The notes: generated by a model not told the origin, from the sequence alone. 64,000 nucleotides of DNA from an uncultured Armatimonadetes bacterium (GCA_963716175.1 OY970296.1:2688001-2752000), one strand, 5' to 3'. Counted from the first letter of the stretch, positions 26,146-41,988 are shown. Translations and numbers: made by a program.

Positions 26146-26491
26146 CTTCCTCGCCTCCATTCTCGCCTCGGGAGGACAGCCGTCGCCCGCGCCCGCTCCT
26201 GGGTGTCGCCGCTCGTGCCGCAGAGGCCTCCCGCTCAGGATTATAGCCGACAGGCCGAACAAAGATCAAGCTCGGCAACGGGCCTGCCCAGAACGTAGCC
26301 GAGGGGCTGAGGTATGAGCGGAATGGGTCCGGCGCGGTGTGGGCTCGCACCAGCGGCTGTATAGTGGCGCGCTGGCGGGGTGCGAGAAGCTCGCCGCCAA
26401 TGGTCCGAAATGACAGCCAGAATGTCGCCATGATCAGCAGGATAAGGGCCGCGATCTTCCCAATATCACCTCGGCAGTAGGTCGGCATCAT
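26021..26491 (-). CDS. Possible small single-pass membrane protein (3' end uncertain)
   Basis: AGGAGAGG RBS and TM segment IAALILLIMATFWLSF. The tail runs through the S8 promoter and start and is probably not real coding. Confidence 0.35.
   Translation of the reverse strand: MMPTYCRGDIGKIAALILLIMATFWLSFRTIGGELLAPRQRATIQPLVRAHTAPDPFRSYLSPSATFWAGPLPSLIFVRPVGYNPEREASAARAATPRSGRGRRLSSRGENGGEEDDGKMAQSHRSGDTGGAGPAGRGRHRCSGARGSVGQPDDPL
26240..26269 (-). promoter_or_regulatory. Putative sigma70 promoter of the S8 peptidase
   Basis: TTGATC-N18-TATAAT on the minus strand, about 95 bp before the start. Confidence 0.6.
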
Positions 26492-26957: not shown

Positions 26958-27140
26958 CAGGGGAAGCGGCCGGCTCCGCAGAGGCATCGCCCGGCGCTCC
27001 CGGATGAAGCTCTCCGGGACCAGGTCCACGATCTCATGCTCGATCTCGCAATCCCGCGAATTGACAAAGGCCACCCCCAGGGCTTCGGCCAGCACCGGGC
27101 CCAGGTCCTTGGGCTTGACGCTCCCCAGCGCGACTACAGA
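26931..27140 (-). pseudogene. Remnant of a PilB/GspE N-terminal (MshEN/T2SSE_N) domain
   Basis: Manual translation VVALGSVKPKDLGPVLAEALGVAFVNSRDCEIEHEIVDLVPESFIRERRAMPL matches the MshEN-region pattern; preceded by in-frame TAG with no start codon. Confidence 0.6.
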
Positions 27141-27384
27141 CTATGGTCTTAGCGGGGCAGCTGGACAGCGATCAGCTGGATAGCTGACAGGCGACAACTA
27201 AGGTAGCAGTTGAGCAGCAGCCAGCCTGGGTGTGAATACGCCCCGTCTGCCATTATCAGGCCCCCGGCCGAGTCAGTGAACGCCATTGGGCCCGCGGGCT
27301 GCCGATTTCAACGGAACTGTGGCATAGGGGCCTAGGACAAAGGTCTCGTCTCCTGTGACGCGGCCTATCCCCGAGGAGCTTGCG

Positions 27385-28083
27385 ATGACCGTGCGACTAG
27401 AGCAGCCGAGAGTCCGTCTGCGCTGCCTGGTAGTGGCGGCCTCCCCTTCGCCCTTGCTGCGACAGGGGCTGCGGCAGCTGCCGCGCGTGGACCCAGCGCT
27501 GGCGCTGGTGGGGGAGGCGCGGAGCGGAGAAGAGGTGCTGGCCCTGCTGGCCCGGTCCCAGCCGGACGTGCTGCTGCTGGACTCGGAACTACCCGGCGTG
27601 GCCGATCTTGAGCTGCTCAGGCAGGTGCTGTCAGAGCATGCCGGCCTGCGGGTGTTGGTCTTGCTGGGAGCCGAGCCGCCGGATCATTACCTGGGACAGG
27701 CGGCCGCCTCCGGCGCCACTGGGTTCGTGCTCAGAAACGCGGATCTTGCCCTGCTCGCCAAGGCGCTGCGGGCAGTGGCGGTCGGTCGCACCTGGCTCCA
27801 GCGGGAGCTGACCGACAGGCTCTTACGCGACTATGCGATTGCTAGCTCGCCGGCAGTGCACACTCCCGGGGTTGCCCTCAGCCGCCGCCAGCGCCAAGTG
27901 CTCGATCTGCTGGCCCAGGGGCTGCGCACCCGCGACATCGCCCGTCAACTGGCCATCTCCGAGAAGACCGTGAAGGCCCACCTCACCGGGCTGTTCCGCA
28001 AGCTGGGCGTGAGCAACCGGTGCGCAGCGGTCTGCTTCGCGCTCCGCCGGGGGTTGGTTCGCGCCGGGCTGCGAGGAGCCTGA
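27385..28083 (+). CDS. NarL/LuxR-family response regulator with atypical receiver
   Basis: PDVLLLD receiver and LS.RQ.QVL.LLAQG....IA..L.ISEKTVK.H HTH; GAGGAG RBS before ATG 27385. Confidence 0.9.
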   Translation: MTVRLEQPRVRLRCLVVAASPSPLLRQGLRQLPRVDPALALVGEARSGEEVLALLARSQPDVLLLDSELPGVADLELLRQVLSEHAGLRVLVLLGAEPPDHYLGQAAASGATGFVLRNADLALLAKALRAVAVGRTWLQRELTDRLLRDYAIASSPAVHTPGVALSRRQRQVLDLLAQGLRTRDIARQLAISEKTVKAHLTGLFRKLGVSNRCAAVCFALRRGLVRAGLRGA

Positions 28084-28221
28084 TCGGCCCATCTGCTAGC
28101 TGTTCAGTTGCCAGTCGGGAAAGCAAGCGGAGCGTCCGCAGAACTCTCTCAGGAGCGGCCCAGGGAGTGACATGCTTGGCCTCCCGGCCATGAGCTGAAC
28201 AGTTGCCCCATCTTGCCGGGC

Positions 28222-28250
28222 TTGCCCTTATCTCGACTGCGTGGTACCAT
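28222..28250 (+). promoter_or_regulatory. Putative sigma70 promoter of the vWA gene
   Basis: TTGCCC-N17-TACCAT with an extended -10 TG. Confidence 0.4.
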
Positions 28251-28388
28251 GCGGAGCACGATTGCCGCAGTACGGCGAAGCACATTCCCCCCTGCTCAGA
28301 AGGGACCAATCGGGGCCTTGGCGCCTCGGGTCTCGGGACCGCTCTGACGTCAGAGCGAGGAGGAGCAGATAGGGGGGTGGCGAACTGG

Positions 28389-28434
28389 AGGCCTGCTCCC
28401 TCGGCTGCGCTCGGAGCAGGCCTGAGCGCAGCCG
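28389..28434. repeat. Interleaved inverted repeats A-B-A'-B' (two perfect 11-bp pairs)
   Basis: AGGCCTGCTCC / GGAGCAGGCCT and CGGCTGCGCTC / GAGCGCAGCCG. Confidence 0.75.
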
Positions 28435-28498
28435 CAGGGGGGGGCGCGTTAGGCTGGGCGGCAGGGCGCCTCAGACGTTCTGCCTAGCAGGGGCATGG

Positions 28499-29920
28499 TT
28501 GATGAAGCTCGGGGACGTGGAACTGGAGTTCCGGGCTGACCGCGTTGCTATCGTCCAGGGCACCGAGAACCCGACGGTGCGGGTCTGGTTCTCGCTTCGG
28601 CCCACCGCGTCCCAGTCGGTTGGCCGCCAGCCAGCCACCGTTACCGTGCTGCTGGACTGCAGCGGCACCATGCGCAGCTTCCGCATGAACGAGGAGGAGG
28701 CCAGGCGCTGGATCCAGACCGCGCGCGAGCGCTCCGAGCTGCGGCTAGTCGAGTCCGACCGGCGAACCGTGCATCAGCTAACCGGGCAAACCCTGCAGGA
28801 TGTTCGCACCTCGGCCCGCTGCTCCCTCGCGGTGGCAGCCTCGGCGCTGGAGAAGATGGCGGCCGAACTGCACGACAGCGATGTCTGCTGTCTGGTCGGG
28901 TTCGCCACCAGGGCTGGCATCTTGCACGACGGAAGGCGCAGGCTGCGCCGCCAGTCACTCCAGGACGTACTGCACCGGATTCAGGAGGACCCGGCTTCCC
29001 CCGGCCTGGGCGACGATACCCGCATGCAAGAGGCCACCCGGATTGCCGCGACCATGTTGAAGGGCGACCCCAGCGCCCGGCGGGTCCGCCGCCTGATCGT
29101 GATCACCGATGGCATCATCCAGGATGACGTGGATACCCTCCGGGAACTGGAGGAGATCCGCAATGAGAAGATCGGGGTTACCACCATCGGTGTTGGGCAG
29201 GAGTTCAACGAGGAGTTTCTGACCCGGGTCGCGGATTGGACCGGAGGCACCTACCACTACGCCCGGACCGCGGAGGAGATCGAGAAGCGGCTGGCAGAGG
29301 ATTTCGGCGTCTTCCAGTCCATCGCCGGGACCGACCTGACGGTCTCGGCCCGGGGGCTGGAGGGCGCGGTGGTAACAGCCGTGACGCAGCTCACCCCGCA
29401 GACCCGGATGTTCGAGGAAGTGCGACTGAGGGATGATTGGTACCAGGTGGAGGTGGGAGATGTCTACGGGGGTACGGGCCTGGGCCTGATGAGCGAGTTC
29501 TCGCTGCCCTGGCTCTCGACAGGCAAGCACACGGTGGGCGAAATCCAGCTGGAGTGGCGGGACCCCGAGACCCGTGCCACTACCAAGGGCGGGCATCTGG
29601 TCCACGTGGACTGCCTGGCCCCCAACTCCCCCGGTCCTGCCGTTGATCCCGAGGTGGAGGGGATGTTCTTCCGGCTTCAGGTCTACCGCGCAGAGCGCCA
29701 TGCCCAGTGGGCCCAGGAGAGCGGGCGCCCGGGCGCGGCCACCGTGCGCCTGCGGGAGGCGAGCACTATCCTGCGGCATCTGGGCGAGCCCGAGCTGGCC
29801 GAGCGGTTCGAGCAGCAGGCCGCGGACATCGAGGCCGAGCATCCGGACTCGGACCGCACGAAGACTCTCAAGGACTGGGTGCGCCGCCTGGCGCAGCGCA
29901 AGGAAGAGGAACGGGAGTAG
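28499..29920 (+). CDS. von Willebrand factor A domain protein with helical C-terminus
   Basis: MIDAS-like LDCSGTM, VITDG, TIGVGQEFNEEFL..VA..TGG.Y.Y; C-terminal helical AT..LR.A...L..LG segment. Confidence 0.85.
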   Translation: MMKLGDVELEFRADRVAIVQGTENPTVRVWFSLRPTASQSVGRQPATVTVLLDCSGTMRSFRMNEEEARRWIQTARERSELRLVESDRRTVHQLTGQTLQDVRTSARCSLAVAASALEKMAAELHDSDVCCLVGFATRAGILHDGRRRLRRQSLQDVLHRIQEDPASPGLGDDTRMQEATRIAATMLKGDPSARRVRRLIVITDGIIQDDVDTLRELEEIRNEKIGVTTIGVGQEFNEEFLTRVADWTGGTYHYARTAEEIEKRLAEDFGVFQSIAGTDLTVSARGLEGAVVTAVTQLTPQTRMFEEVRLRDDWYQVEVGDVYGGTGLGLMSEFSLPWLSTGKHTVGEIQLEWRDPETRATTKGGHLVHVDCLAPNSPGPAVDPEVEGMFFRLQVYRAERHAQWAQESGRPGAATVRLREASTILRHLGEPELAERFEQQAADIEAEHPDSDRTKTLKDWVRRLAQRKEEERE

Positions 29921-29946
29921 CTACAGGCCCTGCCCTGCCGCGCCGG

Positions 29947-31533
29947 TCAGCCCCTGAACAGGCGGCGGCCGATCTCGTGCCAGAATCCGGTGCGGACTCG
30001 CAGGGTCAGCCGGACCCCCGTCTGAGAGATGCCGGACTCAGCCCGGAATGACACTAGCAGACTGTGAATGCCGCTGCGCAGCTCCCGCGCCAGAGGCCGG
30101 ATAGAGAACTCCACCTCACTATCTGGCTCGAGAAGGCATTCGGTCGGCGCCACCTGGACCAGTCCGGGGCGGGAGACCTGCACCCACACGCGCTCCCCGG
30201 TTCCACCTTGGTTGCGAACCTTCACCGTCATTCGCTGCACCGTCTCGCGGGTTACCGTCAGGCTGGCCTCGGTGGGGCTGGCAACCAGGGCGATCGGGGT
30301 GCGGGGCCGGCGGCGGAACCGGCAGGTGACCAGAAGGTCGCCCTGGGGCGTGCTCACCAGGATCTCGCCCTGCTCGGCCTGCCCCGAGGAGGGGCGGGCG
30401 TCGGCCACTACCCGCACGGCCTGGACGTTACCGTCAAAGGCGAGCTCCGACACTCGGCTGCCATCGGGGCGCCGAAAGGCCAGACTGGGCTGGAGCGCGC
30501 GCACCGTGCCGGACAGGGACCCGCCCCCGGCGTTGGTGATCACCAGGGTATGCTCCACCTCTCCCCGGCCGGCCGAGAGGTCGAGGTCAACCTCTTGCTC
30601 CCGGAGCGCCGGCCTCGGCGGGATCATCTGCTGCAGGTCGAGCAGCAATTCCTGGGCTGAGGGATATCGGCCCTCGGGATCCAGGCTCAAGGCCTTCCCC
30701 GCCGGACCCGCTAGCTCCACTGCCCGTTGGGCGATCTCCCGCACCGCCTCCTCGATCAGCAGCGGGTTCCGGGCGTCAATATCATCTTGCTTGAGCTGGC
30801 GATTGGTGATGAGCTCATGGATGGTGCAGCCGAGGGCGAACACGTCGAGCCGGTAGTCGGAGGTGACGACATCGGACTCCACCATCTCGCGCAGTTCCGG
30901 CGCCATGTAGCCGGGCGTGCCTGCGATCTGGGAGGCGGTTCCGTCTATGAAGGCCTGCGCCGGCCCGCCCTGGGTGACCGGGCGCAGCTTCTGGCCGGCA
31001 GGCGCGCCGGCAAAGCGCGCCGAGCCCAGATCGAGCAGCATCGCCAGGCCAGTGGCCCCTACCTTCACGTTCGCTGGCTTCACATCGTGATGGACTACAC
31101 CGTGACCATGGAGTGAGGCCAGGGCGCGCGCGAGCTGGAGGGCGAGCGGGCCCACCTCGGAGGGCGGCATCGGTCCCTCCTGGGCGAGGCGATCCCTCAG
31201 CGACTCCCCCTGGATGAACTCCAGCACCAGGTAGTGCATGCCGTCCTGGGAGAAGGCCTCGATCAGGTCCGGCAGGTGGGGATGCAGGCGAAGGCCCCAG
31301 AGCACATCCCGTTCGTGCAGATAGAGGTCGCGGACGTACTCCCGCTCGCTGACCGTGCTGCCGGGGACGAACTCCTTCAGCGCCAGGGCCACCTGCTTGC
31401 TGGACGTGGCGGCGTAGACCACCGCGTACCCGCCTTCGCCGATGACCTCGCCAACGCGGTAGCTGTCCTGTCCTCTCAGGGTCTGACCCGCCAGCAGAAC
31501 AGTGCGGTCATACTTACGGCGGCGAGTCTGCAT
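29947..31533 (-). CDS. Hanks-type Ser/Thr protein kinase with C-terminal Ig-like (BACON-like) domains
   Basis: IGEGGYAVVY, ALKE, HHDVKPANV, DLGSAR, GTPGYMAPE, DVFALG; ITNAGGGSL and VRNQGG beta-sandwich motifs; no TM. Confidence 0.9.
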   Translation of the reverse strand: MQTRRRKYDRTVLLAGQTLRGQDSYRVGEVIGEGGYAVVYAATSSKQVALALKEFVPGSTVSEREYVRDLYLHERDVLWGLRLHPHLPDLIEAFSQDGMHYLVLEFIQGESLRDRLAQEGPMPPSEVGPLALQLARALASLHGHGVVHHDVKPANVKVGATGLAMLLDLGSARFAGAPAGQKLRPVTQGGPAQAFIDGTASQIAGTPGYMAPELREMVESDVVTSDYRLDVFALGCTIHELITNRQLKQDDIDARNPLLIEEAVREIAQRAVELAGPAGKALSLDPEGRYPSAQELLLDLQQMIPPRPALREQEVDLDLSAGRGEVEHTLVITNAGGGSLSGTVRALQPSLAFRRPDGSRVSELAFDGNVQAVRVVADARPSSGQAEQGEILVSTPQGDLLVTCRFRRRPRTPIALVASPTEASLTVTRETVQRMTVKVRNQGGTGERVWVQVSRPGLVQVAPTECLLEPDSEVEFSIRPLARELRSGIHSLLVSFRAESGISQTGVRLTLRVRTGFWHEIGRRLFRG

Positions 31534-31888
31534 CCTGGGCCCCTGCCAGGTGGACAGTGAGCACGGAGAGCCGCCCTACGGCCACGCGGTCGCCTTCCTT
31601 CAGCGAGCGGGGTTGGCCCACCGATAGCCGTTCCCCGTTCAGCCAGGTGCCATTGGTGCTGCCCTTGTCCACAAGCGATGCCGTGCCGCCGGTCCAGCGG
31701 ATTTCCGCGTGCTGGCGAGAGACAGAGTCGTCTGGGCTCAGGTCAACGTCCGGGGGCTGGGGCTGCGCGGGATCGGCGCGACCAATGGTCACGACAGGGG
31801 TGGAGAAGCGCATCTCGCGCCGAGACGTGCCTACCCGCACATCCAGTCGCAGCTGACCAGCTTGTGGCCCGGACTTCTCGCCTGACAT
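31514..31888 (-). CDS. FHA domain protein
   Basis: TIGR, VSRQHA, DKGSTNGTWLNG; overlaps the kinase start by 20 nt. Confidence 0.9.
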   Translation of the reverse strand: MSGEKSGPQAGQLRLDVRVGTSRREMRFSTPVVTIGRADPAQPQPPDVDLSPDDSVSRQHAEIRWTGGTASLVDKGSTNGTWLNGERLSVGQPRSLKEGDRVAVGRLSVLTVHLAGAQDADSPP

Positions 31889-32013
31889 CTGCACCACTCC
31901 CTCGGCCGTGTCATCCCGTTCTGGCCGGCGCTGGACAAGGGAGTTCTGAGAAACCTGAGCGGAATCCTTCCCGGGAACGCCAGCGCTCCGTCGAAGTCGG
32001 GGCGGCCCCGCCG

Positions 32014-34881
32014 TCAGCGCGTGTGGATGTGATCCAGTGCAATGACGCGGGTGATAACGGAGGGTGAGAAGCAGTCCTTGCTCAGGCACTCCTCTGCCGG
32101 CACTATCTTCTCGGTCAAGCGACACATCAGGTGAGCGCGACGGTGAAGCCGCTCCTCATCGTCCTGGAAGCCAGTGGTGCCCTCCAGCTTCAGGTTGCTG
32201 CACCGCTCCCAGACTTCGGGCAGATTGCAGCTAGCGCAGGCGGACAGGGTCGTACCTCCTCGCGTGGTGTCTTGCGGTAGCGGCTGGCGGCAGCGGTAAC
32301 CGATGCCCGGCAGCTCCTCCCGCAGCTCACAATACCGGTCCTGGTGCGGCTCGAGCAGGTCCTCACGAGGCGACTCGCACTCCACCGTGCGGCTGGCCAC
32401 CAGGCCCACGTTCAGGTCCCTTACCGCCATGCGAAAAGCGGCCCGCAGCAGGATCTTCTTGACCTGCTCTGGGTCTGTCTCAAACAGCTCGCGCAGCGCC
32501 CGGTGATGCGACCGCACCTCCACTGCTTTCTCCACTCTCCCGGACAGGATCGGAACCGTCACGATGCAGCCGCACCGCCTCCGGCTCTTCCAGAGGTGAC
32601 CGACCAACTCGAACCGCCGTCCCCGCGGGCCGATCGTCTCGGCCCGGAAGAACCGCTCATCCCAGGGCTCGGGCGCGTCAGGCGCCAGCCATTCCGTAGC
32701 CCAGGTCCCCAGGCTTGCCCCCACCCCCCGCAGCCAGCGCCGCCAGGGCGGGTCCACCAGGCGCTTTCGCAAGGCCTGCTCGCGCGCCGCCTCCGGCGTG
32801 GCGGCCGCGCCAGGCACGACATCCGGCGGGGGCCCAATGCCCAGGGTCTCGGTCTCGACCTGGGTCTCGGGGCCTGCTGCCTGTTCCTCCTCGACCAGCG
32901 GCTCCGCCCGCCGGGCCCGCACGTGCGCCAGCCAGGCCACCCCCGCCACCAAAGCCAGCATGGGCAGGCTGAGGTAATAGCTCAGTACCCCTTGCTCTGC
33001 CTTCTCCTCCTCGGCTTCCCCCGGCTTCCTCTCCTCAGCCCTGGCCAGGGAGACCAGAGGTGCTGGCTCCTGGGCCAGCACCACTCTCTGCGCCGTCGTC
33101 GGCAGCGGCTTGCCCAAGATCAGCGCCAGCAGGCTGCCGACCAGCCCGCTGATCACGCCTACCACCATCGCCGCCAGGGCATAGACTGCCGACCAGATCG
33201 CTCGCAGCAGGCCGGAGGCCATCCACCAGGGCAGGTAGCCAAGATAGGTCAGGATCCGCAGCACCAGAAGCCACAACGGATAGCTGCCCTGGGGTACCCG
33301 GCCGCCGCGCCCTGACACTGCGGAGGTCTCGCTTAGTCCCCACTCGCGCTTCACCCAGCGCCAGATCTCGGCCGGTCGGGATGGCGCCAGGCTGATTTCC
33401 GAGGTGACCAGAATGAACAGCACGACAGCGCCCAGACCAGCCACGGAGAACAGCAGCCGCCCCACGCTGGTCCAGGCCTGCCAGCCGGCGTGATGGCTGG
33501 CTCCTAGCCTGGACAGGTAGCCCAGAATGGAGAACGAGGCCATCCCCCAGCTTGCCCAGAGCCAGACGGGATGCACAGGCCCGACCAGCGCGCCGATCCC
33601 CGCCACCATGGGCAGAGCCAGGCTGAGCAGCGCTCCCGCCGCCACCAGCAGAACGACCAGAGCTGGCTCAGGGTAGCGCAGGCCTGCCCCGAGGGCAGCC
33701 GAGGTGCTCCCCGGGTGGGCGGTCCCTATCGGAGCCCAGGTCAGGACCAAGGCGATGGCCGCCCCCGCCACCCCGGCAACGCAGACCCGGTTGAGGCCCA
33801 CGCGGCCCAGCGGCCAGGCATCTGCCGCCATCCCACCGATCACTGCCCCCAGCGCGATCCAGATCAGGGCCTGGAGGGCGGGCATGTCGCCACCCGCATG
33901 CCCGCCGCCCGCCAGCGCCCCGAGCCCAGCCGACAGGGCCGATCCGCGACCTGCCCACCCCGCCGCCCGCGCCAGCAGGGGCCACACCAGCAGCGCCGTC
34001 GCTGCCGCCCAGAGCAGGGCCATGATGTGGAGGCGGGCAAGGCCCAGGCTCTGGTCTCGGTGCATGCCCCCGAGGAAAGCGACCGGCGCCAGCACCGCCA
34101 GTGTCGCGCACAACCAGATCAGCGGGGAGTGAAGAATCCCCAGGGCCGCGTCCGACGGCAGCCAGGGAGTGATGCGCAGTATCAGAGGGAGTGCACCAGC
34201 CGGCGCCAGGTTGTGCCAGACCAGCGGCGCCGCTGACGCCGCCAGCACCACCCCCGCCACGCCCCCTAGGGCAGCAGCGGCGGCCCCTGCCACCCGGCCG
34301 CGCAACAGCAGCAGCGCTCCCACCGCTCCGGCGCCACCCACCAGCAGCACCGTCACCGCCCCGGGCAGGCCTGCGTCGAGCGGAGCCGAGGGGGCAGCAA
34401 CGCTAGCTCCTGCCGCCCTCGCGCCTAGCAGCAGCGCTCCCACCCCGCCCGCCAGATACGCTGACGTGTAGTGCCCGCAATGCGCCTGGTTGCTGTAGAG
34501 CAGGGCGGCCAGCGCCACACCGGCCAGCAGCCCCGAGCCAGCCACGAGGGCAGGAGCGACCACTCCTGCCGCCAGGCTCCCGGCGCCCGCCGCCGCCAAC
34601 CACACCGCGGCGGCATTCGCCACCGCGAACAGGACCCCGCACGTGGCCCCGCGACGCCCTACCGCAGCTTCGTCCTCCTGCTCCCTGCGCCACCACACCG
34701 CCGCGCCCAGCAAGCCCACGAGCACCGCCGCCTGCGTCCCAGCCACCAGGAAGACAGCCCCGCGACCCGCCAGTTCCCCCCCCATGACCGCGGGCAGAGC
34801 AAGAGAGGCAAACGCTAACAGCGCCACACTCGCGAGATCGAGATGGCCCGAAGCGGCACCTCGGCTCGATCGCCTCCACAT
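32014..34881 (-). CDS. Large polytopic membrane protein with Cys-rich soluble C-terminal domain, function unknown
   Basis: About 650 aa of Ala/Gly/Leu-rich hydrophobic segments, then a hydrophilic tail with 11 Cys; GGGAGTAGGA RBS. Confidence 0.7.
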   Translation of the reverse strand: MWRRSSRGAASGHLDLASVALLAFASLALPAVMGGELAGRGAVFLVAGTQAAVLVGLLGAAVWWRREQEDEAAVGRRGATCGVLFAVANAAAVWLAAAGAGSLAAGVVAPALVAGSGLLAGVALAALLYSNQAHCGHYTSAYLAGGVGALLLGARAAGASVAAPSAPLDAGLPGAVTVLLVGGAGAVGALLLLRGRVAGAAAAALGGVAGVVLAASAAPLVWHNLAPAGALPLILRITPWLPSDAALGILHSPLIWLCATLAVLAPVAFLGGMHRDQSLGLARLHIMALLWAAATALLVWPLLARAAGWAGRGSALSAGLGALAGGGHAGGDMPALQALIWIALGAVIGGMAADAWPLGRVGLNRVCVAGVAGAAIALVLTWAPIGTAHPGSTSAALGAGLRYPEPALVVLLVAAGALLSLALPMVAGIGALVGPVHPVWLWASWGMASFSILGYLSRLGASHHAGWQAWTSVGRLLFSVAGLGAVVLFILVTSEISLAPSRPAEIWRWVKREWGLSETSAVSGRGGRVPQGSYPLWLLVLRILTYLGYLPWWMASGLLRAIWSAVYALAAMVVGVISGLVGSLLALILGKPLPTTAQRVVLAQEPAPLVSLARAEERKPGEAEEEKAEQGVLSYYLSLPMLALVAGVAWLAHVRARRAEPLVEEEQAAGPETQVETETLGIGPPPDVVPGAAATPEAAREQALRKRLVDPPWRRWLRGVGASLGTWATEWLAPDAPEPWDERFFRAETIGPRGRRFELVGHLWKSRRRCGCIVTVPILSGRVEKAVEVRSHHRALRELFETDPEQVKKILLRAAFRMAVRDLNVGLVASRTVECESPREDLLEPHQDRYCELREELPGIGYRCRQPLPQDTTRGGTTLSACASCNLPEVWERCSNLKLEGTTGFQDDEERLHRRAHLMCRLTEKIVPAEECLSKDCFSPSVITRVIALDHIHTR

Positions 34882-36068
34882 TTCCTACTCCCTACACCAC
34901 CACCATCCGCGGCTCTGGCCACACCGTCCGTAGCCAGGGCGGCCGCGCTGAGCCGAGGTGTGTGCGGGTTAGGCGTCGTCTCTTCGGCCGGCCTGCGAGG
35001 CGCCGGCGGACCCGCCAGCGCGAGCTGGGAGAACTCCTCGGCATGCTTCGCCCGGTACAGCGCCTCCTCGTACTTCACCTGCCCGGTTCGCACCAGCCGC
35101 GCCAGGGACTGGTCCAATGACACCATGCCCGCGCGGGTCCCGGTCTGGATGGCGGAGGGAATCTGGTAGATCTTGTTATCCCGGATTGCGCTCGCCACGG
35201 CGGGGACGTTCGCCATCACCTCGAAGGCCGCCACCCGCCCCCTGCCATCCGCCCTTCGCACCAGGGTTTGCCCGATCACCCCCACCAGGTTGACCGCAAT
35301 TTGCATTCGCACCTGATCCTGCTGATAGGTGGGGAAGATGTCTATGATCCGGTTGATGGTCTCCGCCGCGTCCATGGTGTGGAGGGTGCTGATCACCAGG
35401 TGGCCGGTCTCGGCGGCGGTCATCGCCAGCCGCACCGTCTCCAGGTCTCGCATCTCGCCCACGAGAATCACATCCGGATCCTCGCGCAGCGCGTTCCGCA
35501 ACGCCTGCGTGAAGGAGTCGGTGTCGCCCCCCAGCTCCCGCTGGCTCACCATCGCTTTCTTGTTGCGATGGGTGAACTCGATGGGGTCCTCGATGGTGAT
35601 GATGTGGCAGGGGTAATGCTCGTTGATGGAGTCAATCATCGCCGCCTGCGTGGTTGACTTGCCCGACCCCACGGGCCCGGTCACCAGCACCAGCCCCCGG
35701 ACACGAGCGGGGAAGCTGCGGGCAAGCTCGGGAAGCCCTATGTCCTCCATGGTCATGGTGCGCTTGGGGATTACCCTGAGCACTGCTTCCGTGGTTCCCC
35801 GCTGCTTGAACAGGTTTAACCGGAACCGCTCCCCGTCACCGATGGTGTAGCCGAAGTCCAGCTCCCAGGCCTCGCAGAAGCGTTCCCAGGCGCGCGTCCC
35901 CACCGCCTCGGCGAGCATCTCGTCCAGTTCGAAGGCGGAGAGCGCCGGCAGGTCAGTGGTCAGCAGGTCGCCGTGAATCCGCAGCAGAGCGGGGCGGCCC
36001 GCCTTCAGGTGGATATCGGAGGCCTCCATTTCCGAGGCGATTCTGAGGTACTCATCCAGCACTGGCAT
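34815..36068 (-). CDS. pilT: PilT/PilU family retraction ATPase (3' end may be extended by an indel)
   Basis: ASDIHL, GPVGSGKST, TIEDPIE, LREDPDVILVGEMRD, HLVISTLHT, AVASAIRD. Confidence 0.9.
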   Translation of the reverse strand: MPVLDEYLRIASEMEASDIHLKAGRPALLRIHGDLLTTDLPALSAFELDEMLAEAVGTRAWERFCEAWELDFGYTIGDGERFRLNLFKQRGTTEAVLRVIPKRTMTMEDIGLPELARSFPARVRGLVLVTGPVGSGKSTTQAAMIDSINEHYPCHIITIEDPIEFTHRNKKAMVSQRELGGDTDSFTQALRNALREDPDVILVGEMRDLETVRLAMTAAETGHLVISTLHTMDAAETINRIIDIFPTYQQDQVRMQIAVNLVGVIGQTLVRRADGRGRVAAFEVMANVPAVASAIRDNKIYQIPSAIQTGTRAGMVSLDQSLARLVRTGQVKYEEALYRAKHAEEFSQLALAGPPAPRRPAEETTPNPHTPRLSAAALATDGVARAADGGGVGSRKCGGDRAEVPLRAISISRVWRC

Positions 36069-36084
36069 CGAACTGCTCCGCCTG

Positions 36085-37200
36085 CTAGCGCTCGATCCGC
36101 TTCGCGGTGGGCTCGTCGGGCTCCCGCGGCATGGGGCCGATGACGCCCGAAGCCCGCGCCCGGAAGTCCTTGGGGTTCATGCTCTTGGAGAGGGCTTGCT
36201 CGTAGGTGATCACCCCTTGCCGACAGAGGTCCACCAGGTGCATGTCCATCAGCTGCATGCCGGACTCGCGGCCGGACTCGATCACGCCGTAAAGCTGATG
36301 GGTGCGCCGCTCCCGGATGATGTTGCGGACGGCGGGAGTGGCGATCATGATCTCGAAGGCCGCCACTCGGCCGGGCCGGTCGGCGCGGGGCACCAGGGTC
36401 TGGGAGACCACGGCCTGGAGAGTGAGTGCAAGCTGGGTGCGAATCTGCTGCTGCCGCTGCGGCTCGAACACATCAACGATCCGGTCCACGGTCTGAGCGG
36501 CGTCCGTGGTGTGCACGGTGGACATGACCAGGTGGCCCAGCTCGGCCGCGGTGATCGTGAGCTGAATGGTCTCCAGGTCCCGCATCTCTCCCACCAGGAT
36601 CACATCCGGGTTCTGGCGCATGGCGTGCCGGAGCGCTTCCGCGAAGCTGCGGCTGTCGAACCCGACCTCCCGCTGACTGATGGAGGCCAGCTTGTCGCTG
36701 TGAGAGAACTCGATGGGATCCTCGATGGTGAGCACGTGCACCATGCGGTGATCGTTGAGCCGGTCCACCATTGCCGCCAGGGTGGTGGACTTGCCGCTGC
36801 CCGTGGGTCCGGTCACCAGGACCAGGCCCCGGGGAAGCATGGCCAGGTCCTTCAGGATCGGCGGCAGACCTAGCTCTTCAATGGTCTGAATCCGCAGCGG
36901 TATCAAGCGCAGCGCGGCCGAGATCCACCCCCGCTCCCAGTAGACGTTGACGCGGAAGCGCGCCATGCCGGCCACTTCGTGAGCCAGGTCCACTTCCTCG
37001 CCCCGCTGCACCCGTTCCTGCTGAGCCGGGTTCAGCATCCCGTAGATGAGCTCGGCCAGATCCTGCTGGCTCAAGGGGGGGAGATCGGTGCGCACGAGGT
37101 CGCCATGGATGCGGTAGATGGGGGGCTCGGCGGCCCGCAGATGAAGATCGGATCCCTCCCTCTCCACTAGCTCCTGCAGAAGGGAATCCAGATTGGTCAT
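36085..37200 (-). CDS. pilT: PilT/PilU family retraction ATPase
   Basis: GSDLHL, GPTGSGKST, TIEDPIE, RQNPDVILVGEMRD, HLVMSTVHT, AVRNIIRE. Confidence 0.92.
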   Translation of the reverse strand: MTNLDSLLQELVEREGSDLHLRAAEPPIYRIHGDLVRTDLPPLSQQDLAELIYGMLNPAQQERVQRGEEVDLAHEVAGMARFRVNVYWERGWISAALRLIPLRIQTIEELGLPPILKDLAMLPRGLVLVTGPTGSGKSTTLAAMVDRLNDHRMVHVLTIEDPIEFSHSDKLASISQREVGFDSRSFAEALRHAMRQNPDVILVGEMRDLETIQLTITAAELGHLVMSTVHTTDAAQTVDRIVDVFEPQRQQQIRTQLALTLQAVVSQTLVPRADRPGRVAAFEIMIATPAVRNIIRERRTHQLYGVIESGRESGMQLMDMHLVDLCRQGVITYEQALSKSMNPKDFRARASGVIGPMPREPDEPTAKRIER

Positions 37201-37958
37201 CGCGGCCGCCTACCATCCGTGGGGCCGGCCCCATTGCGCTCCACCGCACCCGGCTCGGGGGCCTGCGCTCTGCGGGAGACCTGCACCATGGGCGCGCCCA
37301 CGGGCCACTGCACGCGCTGGGAGGGAGCGAGGATGAGAGGCGCCTTCGAGCTCTGGAGCTGCTGGCGGATCTCATCGCCCGTGATCTTGCCGTAGGCCTC
37401 CGAGTGTATGCTCCACCAGGGGATGAGCATGGGGAACAGGGGCCGTTCGTTGGCCTGGGCGAAGCGAGCCGCAAGCGAGAAGGGCGGCGTGCTCAGCCGC
37501 TGATTGTACGCGCGCACGGAGCGGTTGAAGCGATCTCGCAGGGGCGCCAGCCGGCTGTCTACCGCCTCGACCGCTTCCATGAGTCGGGAGATGTCCCGGT
37601 CGGCCTGGAAGGCCGGGCCCCGGTGGAACTGCTCTACCGCAGTCTGCACTGTCAGCACCAGCCCGTTCTGGACTGCGGCATGGGTATGCGGGTCGTTGGT
37701 CTCCTCCATCCGCCGCAGCAGGTACTGGATGTCATCAGCTAGCTTGGGGTTGGTGCGCAGGAGCTTGCGCAGGTGGTTGTTGAGCTCGCCCACTAGGTGG
37801 CATCGCTCACGCAGCTGGAAGTAGATGTCGTCCCAGAGACCGCGCATGCGCTCCAGCTCATACCCCAGCCAGAGACGGCAGAGCAACACCATGGCCCCTG
37901 CGGCCACCACGGCCAGGCTGAGAACCCACCACCAGTCTGCTCCAGCAGCCTGCGACAT
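37197..37958 (-). CDS. LemA-family protein with C-terminal extension
   Basis: N-terminal TM; W.DI..QL.ER..L; PAFQAD; RDRFNRSVRAYNQRL..PP.SL.A; ATGA-coupled to pilT. Confidence 0.75.
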   Translation of the reverse strand: MSQAAGADWWWVLSLAVVAAGAMVLLCRLWLGYELERMRGLWDDIYFQLRERCHLVGELNNHLRKLLRTNPKLADDIQYLLRRMEETNDPHTHAAVQNGLVLTVQTAVEQFHRGPAFQADRDISRLMEAVEAVDSRLAPLRDRFNRSVRAYNQRLSTPPFSLAARFAQANERPLFPMLIPWWSIHSEAYGKITGDEIRQQLQSSKAPLILAPSQRVQWPVGAPMVQVSRRAQAPEPGAVERNGAGPTDGRRPR

Positions 37959-38128
37959 ACCGGCCTTCGCTCCGCGGGCGCGCGCTGCGCCCGCCTCCCC
38001 CCTCCCGGTTCTCCGGGAGACCCTCGCCAGATGCGCGACGCCCGGTCACGTCTGGCTTTCCGTGTGGCTCTCAGGTTGTGGCAGCGGACTCTATCTTGCC
38101 TTCGCCCCTTCTCTGTCGCGGTGGAACC

Positions 38129-38626
38129 TCAGTCGAATACCGGCTGCGCCCTCAGTCCAACCGCCAGTGAGAGCAGCGACAGCGGGAAGCGACCGCAAGC
38201 GAACGTCGCGTCCGCCGCCGACAGGTTGTAGTCGGCGACATCGCCCTCGAGCTGCTCCAGCACACGGTCCAGCTCCGATGCCCGCTCTCTCACCAGGGCC
38301 AGACCCACCTCCGCACCGCGGGATTCAGCTTCATCCTCCCGCAGCAGCAGGCCGATCTCCGTTGAGATCTGGACCTTTTCCTTCAGGCTCTCATCGCCGG
38401 CAAGCACCTCCAGCGCTCGCCCCACACTGGTCGCCGCCTCTCGCCACTCCCGCCGGCCCAGGCCCTCCAGGCTCTGCCGCCAGGCCTCGGCGCGGTCCTC
38501 CAGCAAGCTGAGATCCCACGCCACCGCATGCTCCCTGGCCTTCAGCACTCGGCGCAGCCCGTCCAGGTACGCTATCGCGAGGACGATCCACACCAGGAAA
38601 CCGGCAAGCAGCCAGGTGCCGGTCAT
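38129..38626 (-). CDS. Divergent LemA-like protein
   Basis: N-terminal TM, helical body, C-terminal DYN.SA......FPLSLL..AVG....F; GAGAGGGG RBS. Confidence 0.6.
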   Translation of the reverse strand: MTGTWLLAGFLVWIVLAIAYLDGLRRVLKAREHAVAWDLSLLEDRAEAWRQSLEGLGRREWREAATSVGRALEVLAGDESLKEKVQISTEIGLLLREDEAESRGAEVGLALVRERASELDRVLEQLEGDVADYNLSAADATFACGRFPLSLLSLAVGLRAQPVFD

Positions 38627-38894
38627 CTTCCCCTCTCTCCTCTCACTAGGCCCGCCTCCGGCTCTCGTGAGCCGGCGCGGGATTCGGGAGACTTGGGCCC
38701 ATGCTCTCGGCCTGTCACGTCCCGCGCACCGATCCGCGCAAGCATCACCGCCGGCGCCTGAGACCGGCAAGCAGCCGCCTCGTTTCTGATGCCAGAATAT
38801 AGCAGCAGCGATAGCACGTGTCAAGACGCTGGGCTTGCCGACCATGTCCAGGACCGGTCAGACGGCGCGGAGGCCAAAGATCCCGGCCCTGCGC

Positions 38895-40898
38895 CTATCG
38901 CCGTGGTGCCAGGCTGTCTCCGGTGAGGCGCCACAGCAAGGCCCCATTGGGGCCCAGGTGGATCGGCACCCGCAGGTCGCCTGAGGCCCGCTCGACTGGA
39001 AGGGCCCTGCCTTCGTCGTCGAGCACCCCGGCGTAGTCCCCGCGGATGGTGGCAGTCCCGTCTGCGGAGACATTGTCGTAGTTGATCAGTAGGGCCCAGT
39101 CAATTCGGCCCGCGGCGGCGCGAAACAGGGCGGTCTCGACCCAGGGAAGGTCCGCGTCTACTGGCGGTGCGCAGCCCGACATGTCGCGGAGCCCGCGGAA
39201 CAGGGAAAGCGCGGCGCGACAGGTGGCCTCCCGCGGGTCGCTGAGGTCCAGCAGCCGAGGGAAAGGAATGGTGGCGAGGAAGGCCTTGCCCTGGCCGAAG
39301 GCATTCGCCGTGAAGAAGGGATAGCCGTCATCGAAGGAGGCGATCGCCTCGGCCTTCCCCGGGCTCGCCCAGAGGCGATCCGCGCTGCGGCCGAAGGAGA
39401 GCACCTCACCTTCGGGGCTTCCGCCCCAGGGGCGGTCCAGAGCGGCTGCGGCTACGCCAGGGCGGTAGCCCTCGACGGTGACGCCGAAGAGACTGGCGAA
39501 CATCGGGCTGAGGATGGTCAGATCGTCCATCACAGCCAGCAGGTAGCCGCCCGCGGAGACGAAATCGCGCAGCTTGGCCCAGGTGGACAGGCGCAGCGAG
39601 ACTCCCGGCACGATGAGCAGCCGTAGGCACGCAGCTGTAGGGCGGGCATGCCCATGCCCGCGGCCGATCACGCCGGTTAGGCGGTCCTCTCGCACCAGGT
39701 CGAGGTTCAGGTTGGCGCCTTTGGCCAGGGTGAAGTGGCGCCAGAGCTTGTCGTGAAGGCGGCCGGCTCTCTCGTAGTAGCCATGGGGGTAGATCAGGGC
39801 GGCGCGGGGAGGTTCCAGCGCGAGTTCGTCCAGAGGCAGACGGCGGACATCGGCGGCGAAGCGCACGAACTCGCGCCCGCGCGGCTTGAGAGAACGATCC
39901 ACGTTGCAGATGCCGAAGTTGGGCTCCAGCGGGGAGGCGTCCAGCGGCCAGCGATAGTGCTGTTCTTCTTCGTAATCGGTGTAGTTCCAGGGCAGCACGC
40001 CCAGGTTGCCGTTGGCCAGGCTGGTGTAGAGCCAGGCGCGAAAGCGGTCCGCGAGCACCCGCTCGGAGGCGACGGAGGAGGAGATGCCGGGCCCCTCGTG
40101 AAGGAACGCCGGTCTGCCCGCGGCAAAGAACCGAGTCTGGAAAGCACCATAGGCGACTAGCTCGACCTCGCCCCGCGTCAGCGGCCAGGGGTAGATGCAG
40201 TAGGACATCATATCCAGATGCTCCGCCACCTCCTCCAGGGCGAACCCGCTGTCGGATCGCACCGGGTGCGGGTCGAATCCGAGTGTGATCAGGTGGTTGG
40301 GGTCCACCTCCCTGATGGCGGCCGCGAGCCGGGCCACCCATTGGGTGGCGATGTCACGGCGAGCAGGGGGCCTGCCGGCCGCGGTGCGCGGCGGAGACGG
40401 CGGTATCTCCTCCAGGTAGTAGGGCTCATCGCTCAGATCCCAACACAGGATGGCGTCGTCATCCGCGAAGCTGCGGGCGAAGGCGGCGACGTGCCGCGCC
40501 TCCATCTCCAGCATCTCTCCCTGGTACATCCCCGGCGCTTTCCAGTAGGGAGCATCGTACATGCCGGTCCAGGTTCCGATCAGAAACACCGGCATCACCA
40601 ACAGCTCTCGCGCCCGGCATTCCTCGACAAAGGAGCGGAAGACGCGCAGGTAATCCTCGCTGTACTTCCCTGCTTCCGGCTCGAAGCCGGCCCAGAAAAC
40701 AGGGACGCGGATGCTGTTGAGCCCCAACTCCCTCATGTGGTCGAGGTCCGCGCGGATATGCTCCACTCGGTAGTCGGCGAAGTAGTTGCCGCAGAGATAG
40801 CTGGGCAGGTAGTTGATGCCAATCGGGAAGAACCGCCGGCCGCCGCGGACGAGGTAGTGGCCATCGCAGGTGACGAAAGGCATGGGAGAAGCCTCCAT
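38895..40898 (-). CDS. Clan GH-A glycoside hydrolase (GH5/GH42-like) with C-terminal trimerisation-type domain
   Basis: GINYLP, LNSIRVP.FW..FEP, WDLSDEP (acid/base), FLHEGP (nucleophile), WNYTD..E.NFG. Confidence 0.75.
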   Translation of the reverse strand: MEASPMPFVTCDGHYLVRGGRRFFPIGINYLPSYLCGNYFADYRVEHIRADLDHMRELGLNSIRVPVFWAGFEPEAGKYSEDYLRVFRSFVEECRARELLVMPVFLIGTWTGMYDAPYWKAPGMYQGEMLEMEARHVAAFARSFADDDAILCWDLSDEPYYLEEIPPSPPRTAAGRPPARRDIATQWVARLAAAIREVDPNHLITLGFDPHPVRSDSGFALEEVAEHLDMMSYCIYPWPLTRGEVELVAYGAFQTRFFAAGRPAFLHEGPGISSSVASERVLADRFRAWLYTSLANGNLGVLPWNYTDYEEEQHYRWPLDASPLEPNFGICNVDRSLKPRGREFVRFAADVRRLPLDELALEPPRAALIYPHGYYERAGRLHDKLWRHFTLAKGANLNLDLVREDRLTGVIGRGHGHARPTAACLRLLIVPGVSLRLSTWAKLRDFVSAGGYLLAVMDDLTILSPMFASLFGVTVEGYRPGVAAAALDRPWGGSPEGEVLSFGRSADRLWASPGKAEAIASFDDGYPFFTANAFGQGKAFLATIPFPRLLDLSDPREATCRAALSLFRGLRDMSGCAPPVDADLPWVETALFRAAAGRIDWALLINYDNVSADGTATIRGDYAGVLDDEGRALPVERASGDLRVPIHLGPNGALLWRLTGDSLAPRR
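39635..39661 (+). repeat. GTAG-type REP-like element, in frame inside the glycoside hydrolase gene
   Basis: CTGTAGGGCGGGCATG-CC-CATGCCCGC; same 16-mer at 45129 and 56715. Confidence 0.8.
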
Positions 40899-40986
40899 GG
40901 ACTACGAACTCTCGTGCTTCGCAGTCAAGCCGCGAAGCTTCGTCGCTGCTGGGCAGAGTGGTATCGAGACGCGCTCTCGGGGACGC

Positions 40987-41988
40987 TCAGACCAGCTTCA
41001 CTTCTCGCCCCGAGGCGGCGCTCTCCTCCGCGGCCAGCACCACCGCCACCGCCGCCCTTCCCTCTGCCAGCGAGCAGGCCGGGCTAGCGTCTCCGCGCGC
41101 TACGGCCAGGAAGTGGCGCAGCTCTTCCACGTACACCCCTTGCGCCGCGCCGCGGACGACCGGCAAGTAGAGGATGTCGGGGAACCGGAGGCCGGCGGAG
41201 CCATCAATCCTCAATCCCTGATCCTGGACGGAGATATAGAGCGCGGCTTTGCTGCCTACCGCCTCTAGCTGGAAGTCGAGAGGGCCCGAGCCTCCCGCCG
41301 GCAAGATCCAGGCCGCTTCGATGCAGGCCAGCGCGCCGCTGGGGAAGCGCAGCAGCAGGACGTAGGCATCAGGGGTGCGCAGGTCGGACAGCACCCGGCC
41401 GGCGGTGCGGGCGATCACCGAGGTGGCCCTCTCGCCTAATGCCCACTGGACCCAGTCAATGTCGTGCACGGCCAGGAAGCGAGCCACGTTGGTGTCCGGG
41501 GCAACTCGCCGCGCTACGCTGATGCTGTTATTGCGCCGCGCGTAGATGTAGCTGATCTGTCCCATCTCGCCTCTGGCAATGGCCTCCTGTGCCAGGGCAT
41601 AGCGGGGCTCCCAGCGGAGAGTGTGGCCGACCAGCACCCGGATGCCGTGCTCCTGGGCAGCCGCGGCGATGGCGTCGCAGTCGGCGAGCGTGGTGGCGAG
41701 CGGCTTCTCGATCAGTACGTGTGCGCCTGCTCTGGCTGCGGCCAGGCAGGGATCGCGGTGGGCGTGGTCGCTGGTGGCCACTATCACGGCCGCGAGGTGC
41801 TCTCGCGCCAACATCTCGTGGTAGTCGGCGTAGGCAGCAGCTCCGCCCTGGGCGGCCAGTGAGCCCGCCCGATCCTCTCGCGCGTCGGCGACCGCGGTCA
41901 GCTTCGCCTCCGGCAGCGCGGAGAGGGCTAGGGCGTGCTGCCTGCCCATGACGCCGGCGCCGATCAGCCCCACGCGAAGAGGGGTCAT
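40987..41988 (-). CDS. Gfo/Idh/MocA family oxidoreductase
   Basis: GLIGAGVMG, IEKPLA, GHTLRW, HDID. Confidence 0.92.
   Translation of the reverse strand: MTPLRVGLIGAGVMGRQHALALSALPEAKLTAVADAREDRAGSLAAQGGAAAYADYHEMLAREHLAAVIVATSDHAHRDPCLAAARAGAHVLIEKPLATTLADCDAIAAAAQEHGIRVLVGHTLRWEPRYALAQEAIARGEMGQISYIYARRNNSISVARRVAPDTNVARFLAVHDIDWVQWALGERATSVIARTAGRVLSDLRTPDAYVLLLRFPSGALACIEAAWILPAGGSGPLDFQLEAVGSKAALYISVQDQGLRIDGSAGLRFPDILYLPVVRGAAQGVYVEELRHFLAVARGDASPACSLAEGRAAVAVVLAAEESAASGREVKLV

Follow-up and report, generated by a model that had tools for sequence, protein, structure and literature searches.

What is understood of PilT-family ATPases concerns almost exclusively their role as motors that retract pili by way of PilC, and the tandem pilT-pilU genes of Pseudomonas and Vibrio encode the type IVa retraction ATPases. 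A membrane machine under phosphorylation control is known from the threonine-phosphorylation pathway of the type VI secretion system (T6SS), with its kinase PpkA, Fha1 and PppA; PpkA carries a vWA domain, and a Hanks kinase together with an FHA protein gates the assembly of a membrane-embedded machine powered by a ring ATPase. Here we describe a block of eight genes (g1 to g8) in which a pair of PilT genes is combined with LemA-type genes, a gene for a polytopic membrane protein and a set of FHA, kinase and vWA genes. The block lies in a 64,000-nucleotide stretch from an uncultured, soil-type Armatimonadetes bacterium (OY970296.1:2688001-2752000; G000:C1:2688001-2752000 among our genomes), hereafter the window, and positions are counted from its first letter. 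The host genome is a single contig of 4.56 Mb with about 67% G+C.

The nearest described counterparts of the non-motor parts come from archaea and other bacteria. ArnB, vWA2 and Caci_2163 (PDB 4FX5) share a fold made of a vWA domain, a beta-sandwich and a four-helix bundle; ArnC/ArnD phosphorylate the bundle of ArnB, the FHA protein ArnA recognises it, and the archaellum is under the control of the ArnA/ArnB pair, according to the accessible portions of two articles (PMC6509490, PMC12852372). In Deinococcus radiodurans, an operon (DRA0331-DRA0334) encodes a vWA protein, a Ser/Thr kinase, an FHA protein and a PP2C phosphatase, as given in the part of a preprint available to us (bioRxiv 10.64898/2026.01.23.701218). 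LemA proteins, MamQ included, remodel membranes and act as hubs of membrane complexes, as described in the accessible text of another preprint (bioRxiv 10.64898/2026.10.21.759321).

Within one uncultured Armatimonadota family, the block described here forms an accessory unit restricted to certain lineages. It is built of two separable modules: module A (g1 to g5), which holds the PilT pair, and module B (g6 to g8), which resembles the ArnA/ArnB switch. Each ingredient is known, and what appears to be new is the combination, the g5 family and a domain with eight invariant cysteines (8-Cys) at the end of g5. An initial annotation, made from the sequence of the stretch, knew of no description of the combination, and we likewise found no description of LemA, PilT and FHA/kinase/vWA genes together in the searchable literature, which leaves aside subscription journals and the supplementary neighbourhood tables where one may be held.

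Conservation and modular split of the block

Relatives of the block were recovered at one genome locus (L025, corresponding to G011:C1:2691031-2713656) and at ten metagenome loci. The two PilT genes and g5 are adjacent in all eight loci that cover them (the window, L025, L027, L028, L029, L031, L032 and L034), and g1 and g2 stand upstream of the PilT genes in 6/6 loci reaching that far. The most divergent arrangement is seen in L034, where the PilTs are 60-64% identical and the g5-like protein is alignable in its C-terminal domain only (41% identity). Outside the block, the genes differ: a GH5-like hydrolase, an oxidoreductase and a LuxR-type response regulator in the window, an RHH+PIN toxin-antitoxin-type pair directly upstream of g1 in L025 (L025:5050-5714), and a large serine recombinase about 1 kb upstream of g1 in L029 (L029:2833-4704). 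A gene order that is retained from locus to locus amid changing flanks goes beyond chance. The number of independent lineages is about eight rather than eleven, because L026 is 98-100% identical to the window and L027 and L028 are close to L025. Among the conditions under which the initial annotation would have abandoned its proposal was a gene order kept in no relative; the order is kept in the related Armatimonadota loci, and the block is a real, conserved unit.

The candidate system proposed there, of seven co-directional genes converging on the vWA gene, is however not one indivisible unit. FHA and kinase genes, with or without the vWA gene, follow g5 in seven of the ten loci that show this junction (the window, L026, L025, L027, L029, L030 and L033). 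In the other three, g5 is followed by a dehydrogenase-like frame (L031), by respiratory-complex-like genes (L034) or by an oxidoreductase gene on the opposite strand (L035). Moreover, a search at E <= 1e-10 detects full-length homologues of g8 in 96 of the 401 phylum genomes, and G020, G074 and G034 have a triad of FHA, kinase and vWA genes that all run in one direction; a short contig of G018 carries kinase and vWA genes and ends within the former. The neighbours of the stand-alone triads vary (for example, a TPR-kinase or a TPR protein), and in another family the vWA gene is accompanied by a small TPR/DivIVA-like gene only. No homologues of PilT, LemA or g5 were found within 10 kb on either side of the stand-alone module B genes (less for G018 and G034). 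Judging from these widespread vWA homologues and from the triads without module A, module B is an older, self-contained cassette; it probably became linked to module A a single time, the vWA gene being inverted in the process, and most lineages have retained it there. The junction and the inversion are retained across lineages whose g5 proteins are only 43-47% identical.

Module A is very rare. A search of 1.84 billion representatives for relatives of g5 returned 17 (E <= 0.001); within the 401 phylum genomes, g5 is present in full length in two (the host and G011) and gives any match in four, and among the other 14 genomes of the host's family, a single one has it. The scope of what follows is accordingly that of a narrow distribution within uncultured Armatimonadota. 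As a separate observation, both g5 and the FHA gene are split between two frames in the G011 assembly, and the fact that this genome is 65% complete in spite of being one contig suggests many frameshift errors.

In the window, seven head-to-tail genes run along the minus strand from 38626 down to 29947, and g8 lies on the plus strand (Table 1). All the couplings listed by the initial annotation were found: g2 and g3 share an ATGA overlap, g3 and g4 are spaced by 16 bp, and overlaps of 67 bp and 20 bp join g4 to g5 and g6 to g7. Also as it had noted, g8 converges on the kinase gene g7, and their stop codons are 26 bp apart. Larger gaps separate g1 from g2 (170 bp) and g5 from g6 (125 bp, counted to the likeliest g6 start, ATG 31888, which agrees with the starts of the orthologues and was favoured over the longest-frame start at 32125). 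The ATG of g1 is preceded by a Shine-Dalgarno-like run, GGAGAGAGGGG, and the promoter-like site of Table 1 lies about 170 nt upstream of this start. A consensus scan of 14.2 kb gave two such sites versus a mean of 0.7 in shuffled sequences, this one being the only site at 11/12, and no Rfam match at E <= 1 was seen in the leader of about 170 nt or anywhere in 27000-41000. Tight couplings downstream of a single near-consensus promoter look like the signals of an operon.

Table 1. Positions of the genes and sites of the block within the window
Feature	Position	Strand	Characteristics
Sigma-70-like promoter	38796..38824	-	TTGACA-17-TATATT, 11/12 match, TG before -10
g1, 165-aa single-pass membrane protein with helical domain	38129..38626	-	transmembrane residues 6-24
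g2, LemA-family single-pass membrane protein, 253 aa	37197..37958	-	Pfam LemA 5.1e-14
g3, PilT-type hexameric ATPase, 371 aa	36085..37200	-	TIGR01420 469.8 bits
g4, second PilT-type ATPase, 417 aa	34815..36068	-	TIGR01420 445.2 bits
g5, 955-aa polytopic membrane protein	32014..34881	-	about 15-17 hydrophobic helices, ~300-residue tail
g5 C-terminal domain, residues 735-955	32017..32679	-	alpha/beta half and 8-Cys half
g6, stand-alone FHA protein, 124 aa	31514..31888	-	Pfam FHA 2.3e-19
g7, soluble Hanks-type Ser/Thr kinase, 528 aa	29947..31533	-	Pkinase 1.6e-33
g8, cytoplasmic vWA protein	28499..29920	+	vWA, beta-rich middle, C-terminal helical region

Just upstream of g8 and on its strand, the interval 27355-28487 holds a gene for a LuxR/NarL-type response regulator and a 94-codon open reading frame, neither of which stands beside the block in any other recovered locus. 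Farther out, 24118-26262 encodes a secreted subtilase (S8) with a fervidolysin-type prodomain, and G011 has a homologue of it (56% identity) at a similar distance from its own block.

The PilT pair and the pilus genes of the genome

Both ATPases pass the curated cut-off of the PilT/PilU family TIGR01420, which is 319.1 bits. In a search of the PDB, their best solved relatives were PilT retraction ATPases (6.3e-111 for g3 and 1.9e-98 for g4), and both score nearer to PilT than to PilU structures. With the motif definitions that we assume for the Walker A, Asp, Walker B and His boxes, the catalytic boxes are present in the two proteins (GP(T/V)GSGKST, TIEDPIEF, DPDVILVGEMRD and GHLV.ST.HT) and are kept in all six rows of both clade alignments wherever these are covered. 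At the position of the helix AIRNLIRE, which we take to be the PilT signature, g3 has the close variant AVRNIIRE and g4 the diverged AVASAIRD, the latter being conserved in the g4 clade. The orthologues of g3 are 75-86% identical to it in the four full-length cases and 64% in the partial copy of L034. The C-terminal extension of g4, about 55 aa (34815-34979), runs past the stop point of five orthologues and into the start of g5; it is unique to this genome and unconserved in those five.

The origin of the pair was traced with a maximum-likelihood tree of 18 PilT sequences and a PilB outgroup, two frameshifted PilTs of the host genome being left out. The module PilTs form two clades, PilT1 with g3 (support 100/99) and PilT2 with g4 (100/98), and the L034 copies fall inside them. 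The sisters of these clades are the third and fourth genes of a PilT tandem elsewhere in the host genome, at 2.3496 and 2.3507 Mb. Of the other 14 family genomes, G011 alone has a g3-type copy exceeding 80% identity, the best match in each of the others being 63-68% identical. Together, the tree and the family distribution mark the module motors as accessory duplicates of a core pair; by this phylogeny, the module PilTs are private duplicates of two core tandem members that have been inherited with g5 ever since.

This tandem consists of four PilT genes (G000:C1:2347113-2351749; 2.347-2.352 Mb), the first of which is split by a frameshift near 2347763. Its flanks are unrelated to the module (arsenical-resistance-type genes, a thioredoxin-reductase-like gene and Nuo), and it does not qualify as a further module copy. 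Ten of the other 14 family genomes likewise have three or four PilTs in tandem. Several other PilTs are kept by 15/15 family genomes, the module pair by 2/15. In total, the host genome has ten PilT-type genes, eight besides g3 and g4, including a pilB-pilT-pilC set at 3.27 Mb and a second such set at 4.145 Mb with a split pilT. The ordinary needs of retraction are thus covered by other genes, since the core array and the pilB-pilT-pilC sets exist. As to the split pilT, located between PilB-type and PilC-type genes (G000:C1:4145204-4146245), it reads in two frames and is either frameshifted or mis-assembled.

The absence of pilB, pilC, pilin and secretin genes from the window, noted in the initial annotation, is borne out by profile searches, which place all such matches outside it. 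The only T2SSE ATPase matches in the 64 kb are g3 and g4, out of 21 in the genome; none of the 17 T2SSF/PilC matches, of the 9 secretin matches or of the 71 prepilin N-methyl matches lies inside, and a regular-expression scan for prepilins agrees. Genome-wide, PilC-type genes number about 8 and PilB/GspE-type ATPases 7-8, and several of the PilB-PilC sets lack an adjoining PilT.

Membrane proteins and the putative phospho-switch

The constant companion of the PilT pair, g5, was described in the initial annotation as a Cys-tailed polytopic protein, and so it is, the alignments showing eight invariant cysteines in its tail (C851, C864, C882, C885, C894, C920, C932 and C937). No match to g5 was found in Pfam, NCBIfam or PADLOC, nor a Pfam family for the shared domain with a tail alignment of all 11 members, and the ESM Atlas gave no usable match for the tail or for residues 1-700. 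The last 220 residues are the best-conserved part. An AlphaFold2 model of the full-length protein has a mean predicted local distance difference test score (pLDDT) of 56.1 and a predicted template modelling score of 0.38. For the C-terminal domain modelled separately, the mean pLDDT is 66, with block means of 73-91 over domain residues 1-110; these confident ~110 residues form an antiparallel sheet with two helices, and the Cys-rich part stays below 50. Against 48,161 chains, the best structural match of the tail model (VIA-align) was Mog1 with a Z of 5.4, covering model residues 1-95 only, followed by weak matches to profilin, Gse1 and type III chaperones; Foldseek returned nothing from the PDB at E <= 0.001, with the Cys-rich half modelled below pLDDT 50.

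The same 8-Cys domain also occurs in soluble proteins without a hydrophobic start, namely a 296-aa paralogue in the host genome and a protein in G018, and an RARR stretch directly follows the last transmembrane helix of g5. From the positive-inside rule and these soluble versions, the tail of g5 is predicted to be cytoplasmic, and its eight invariant cysteines suggest two metal sites, for zinc or iron-sulfur, in what is probably a metal-binding domain. Other proteins join the 8-Cys domain to Schlafen AlbA_2 (1.3e-14) or, in the case of a G361 protein, to a weak TIR-like/DUF4062 region (about 4e-4, below the cut-off); a third protein has a helical C-terminus without a family match (the fusion proteins come from P0017, L039:1099-2433 and L037:1006-2178). 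It is a new and very rare domain that is also used in proteins with Schlafen-type modules. The 296-aa paralogue (L024:5205-6095, that is, G000:C1:2810204-2811094) lies between Mutator-family transposase and rve-integrase genes, and prepilin-type/DUF1559-like genes are located nearby.

According to the initial annotation, g1 and g2 were both LemA genes, which holds for g2 and fails for g1. The g2 protein scores 52.8 bits against PF04011 (gathering threshold 26.2) over profile positions 2-136 of 149. For g1, there was no Pfam or NCBIfam match, only two of its five orthologues reach LemA (E >= 0.22), and hhalign gives a probability of 0.4% against the g2 family, so that we rejected the LemA assignment. 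What g1 has in common with LemA is the architecture of an N-terminal transmembrane helix and a helical domain, as well as a short FP.S-like C-terminal motif. Its orthologues (35-47% identity) hold the same position in L025, L027, L028, L029 and L031.

A C-terminal extension (residues ~171-218), nearly invariant in alignments of the subfamily, sets g2 apart. Only the host and G011 exceed 300 bits with the g2 profile among the 401 phylum genomes; the remaining LemA matches of the phylum have 47 bits or less and end at profile position ~177, short of the extension. In a large protein collection, the g2 subfamily amounts to about 38 clusters, the one that is named being Armatimonadota. A second g2-like LemA gene of G011 (L077:9813-10937; G011:C1:1261812-1262936), with 56% identity including the C-terminal extension, has a glycosyltransferase-like neighbour; with no PilT nearby, it was rejected as a second copy of the module. 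The C-terminal flanks of both g1 and g2 are R/K-rich, and by the charge rule their soluble domains may be placed in the cytoplasm.

In module B, the kinase gene g7 is translationally coupled to the FHA gene g6. The orthologues of g6 that follow g5 are 50-69% identical in L025, L027, L029, L030 and L033 and 99% in L026, and g6 matches the T6SS FHA model TIGR03354 weakly (3.5e-11), far below its cut-off. The FHA homologue of the G020 triad has a C..C motif ahead of its FHA domain. The kinase ends in a beta-rich region of ~220 aa, has no hydrophobic helix and is aligned with its homologues from stand-alone triads over residues 1-501. The vWA protein g8 is likewise free of hydrophobic helices. Its residues D53, S55, T174 and D204, which we take to be the positions of the metal-ion-dependent adhesion site, are invariant in 19 sequences, and this is consistent with an intact site. 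A profile of the 19 g8 homologues matches PDB 4FX5 at 1.6e-14 over chain residues 94-421 of 464, an alignment that spans the vWA, middle and C-terminal helical parts of the profile; the vWA part further matches the ArnA/ArnB co-crystal 8S05 (9.2e-10) and the ArnB paralogue vWA2 (5A8J; 9.1e-8). On the strength of these profile matches, g8 is of the tripartite ArnB/vWA2/Caci_2163 type. In its C-terminal tail, the threonine of the widely conserved K-A-x-T-R-R-L is replaced by valine in the module clade. Related in sequence to the ArnB group, module B is a predicted bacterial phospho-switch of the ArnA/ArnB/ArnC kind. Its position beside PilT genes is unusual, because archaeal FHA/vWA switch genes are reported, in the accessible part of the literature, never to occur within type IV pilus loci.

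A proposed motor platform, its rivals and its relation to known systems

Such evidence induces us to propose that a dedicated PilT pair acts on a novel platform in the membrane, with an ArnAB-like switch as its gate. Module A would be a membrane-anchored motor complex: two PilT rings, or one mixed ring, would dock on the cytoplasmic face of a platform formed by g5 and g1/g2, where the alpha/beta and 8-Cys tail of g5 would serve as the docking part together with the bitopic g1 and g2. The motors would act on this platform rather than on PilC, and ATP would be spent to move or reshape something in the membrane. The kinase g7 would phosphorylate the ArnB-like g8 as well as, possibly, tails within module A; the mark would be read by the FHA protein g6, and the state of the complex would gate the engagement or activity of the motors. 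Docking, phospho-targets and motor output are what we infer from the comparisons above, with a topology predicted by the positive-inside rule, and we hold the proposal as a whole tentatively, at somewhat less than an even chance. A PilT pair on a new platform had already been suggested in the initial annotation; the conserved adjacency and the PilT phylogeny make it the best reading, and physical docking is the part that they leave conditional. A complex prediction for g3, g4 (residues 1-355) and the g5 tail gave a score of 0.00 in two runs without controls and is evidence neither way.

Several points weigh against this proposal. The docking of the PilTs on g5 or on the LemA-type proteins is presumed from comparative evidence, and any of the ~8 genomic PilC-type platforms, or of the PilB/GspE systems, could be what g3 and g4 truly work with. 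Conservation is poor in the transmembrane part of g5, and the model of this part is of low confidence; it may be a mere anchor. The cytoplasmic placement of g1 and g2 comes from the charge rule only, given that the soluble domain of the LemA-family protein MamQ is periplasmic, as stated in the accessible text of the preprint (bioRxiv 10.64898/2026.10.21.759321). With regard to the switch, g6 is a bare FHA domain without the zinc finger of the ArnA type, and no phosphatase domain was recognised among the eight block proteins, the remaining genome not having been searched for one. Since module B is missing after g5 in L031, L034 and L035, the switch is dispensable for module A. A 125-bp gap separates g5 from g6, and the vWA gene is inverted. 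Finally, the union of the two modules probably arose once, and hence the seven junction loci are not independent.

An obvious rival is that the block is an accessory of an ordinary type IV pilus, g3 and g4 being extra retraction motors on a canonical PilC encoded elsewhere, while g1, g2, g5 and the switch merely localise, sequester or time them. Both ATPases are bona fide PilTs by sequence, the genome is rich in pilus systems, several of its PilB-PilC sets have no PilT next to them, and the archaeal ArnA/ArnB pair regulates a type IV filament machine, as far as the accessible texts go (PMC6509490, PMC12852372). Nevertheless, the core array and the pilB-pilT-pilC operons already supply eight other PilT genes, and several of these are present in every genome of the family, whereas the module pair is restricted to two of 15. 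In addition, the co-inheritance of PilT, PilT and g5 in 8/8 loci makes g5, not a distant PilC, the constant partner, and we therefore consider a role as a pilus accessory unlikely. It is also conceivable that two or three independent operons simply lie side by side, among them one for PilT, LemA and the membrane protein and a general FHA-kinase-vWA cassette with unrelated targets. In favour of this speak the solitary module B genes of G020, G018, G074 and G034 with their varied neighbours, the vWA gene in 96/401 phylum genomes, the three junctions lacking the cassette and, once more, the gap before g6 and the strand of the vWA gene. Yet the junction, its orientation and the vWA inversion have been kept while g5 diverged to 43-47% identity and the outside genes came to differ in every locus, and the consensus scan, the only one made for this purpose, revealed no promoter-like site between g5 and g6; mere adjacency is thus quite unlikely in our opinion.

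One might also suspect a conflict or anti-phage island, with g5 as a membrane effector or sensor, the kinase, FHA and vWA proteins as its trigger, and the two PilTs either supplying an NTPase engine or sensing phages that enter by way of pili. The distribution is patchy enough for this (2/15 family genomes, with absence from G005, which belongs to the same genus as G011 and is 93% complete), and the recombinase of L029, the RHH+PIN pair of L025, the Schlafen fusion and weak TIR-like association of the 8-Cys domain and the position of its stand-alone paralogue between transposase genes would fit as well. The kinase, too, matches the PD-T4-6, mad6/MADS and MkoA kinase models (PADLOC-DB v2, NCBIfam), but these matches reflect generic Hanks similarity and fall far short of the NCBIfam cut-offs. 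A significant system-specific PADLOC match is lacking for the other seven proteins: g1, g2, g5, g6 and g8 gave no match in PADLOC-DB v2, and g3 and g4 gave weak P-loop matches only. Neither a nuclease nor an NADase nor a pore-forming domain was recognised, the flanks in the window are of housekeeping type, and no tRNA or integrase gene adjoins the block there. Overall, we judge a defence function very unlikely.

Returning to the dedicated PilT pair on its own platform, it is tempting to go one step further and to suppose that module A is a PilT-powered inner-membrane machine unrelated to pili, with the LemA-type proteins as stators or curvature elements. Force could be exerted on the platform of ~16 helices through the metal-binding domain, for membrane remodelling or for a non-pilin substrate, and the ArnA/ArnB-type switch would be wired directly to module A in most lineages. 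We regard this stronger version as doubtful, but if true, it would give the first identifiable direct target of a bacterial ArnAB-like switch. A PilT pair that always comes with an unclassified membrane protein and LemA-type proteins would exemplify in nature the re-use of this motor on another platform, and an ArnA/ArnB-like cassette set against PilT genes offers a concrete candidate target.

Compared with the tandem PilT/PilU of type IVa pili, the block likewise has two adjacent PilT-family genes with intact boxes, of which the first has a helix close to the presumed signature and the second a diverged one. The pair differs in being an accessory duplicate without PilB, PilC, pilin or secretin genes nearby and in always being followed by the polytopic g5. 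With the T6SS pathway, the block shares a kinase and an FHA protein, the latter with its weak match to the T6SS model, but it has no T6SS genes, its kinase is soluble, its vWA protein is separate and cytoplasmic, and a phosphatase is missing from it. Like MamQ and the LemA1/LemA2 proteins of P. aeruginosa, g2 is a LemA-family single-pass membrane protein; its conserved C-terminal extension is a difference, its topology may be another, and a PilT or ATPase partner has 0 occurrences in the accessible text of the LemA preprint (bioRxiv 10.64898/2026.10.21.759321). The Deinococcus operon DRA0331-DRA0334, compared by domain types only, combines the same three types in one bacterial signalling module, whereas in the accessible part of its description it includes a PP2C with a KI-FHA domain, is linked to DNA-damage kinases and has no ATPase or membrane-protein genes attached.

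The closest counterpart of module B is the ArnA-ArnB-ArnC/ArnD switch of Sulfolobus acidocaldarius. Module B shares with it the set of proteins, its neighbouring genes encoding a vWA protein related in sequence to the ArnB group, a small reader with an FHA domain and a Hanks kinase. That switch is archaeal and its ArnA has a zinc finger, while the block is bacterial, lacks this finger in g6 and contains no phosphatase. ArnA and ArnB act on gene expression, whereas in the block, where the triad abuts the PilT genes, a direct action on the motor complex is only proposed. The machine regulated by the Arn proteins is a type IV filament device, and it too is driven by a secretion-superfamily ATPase, as described in the accessible portions of the cited work (PMC6509490, PMC12852372).

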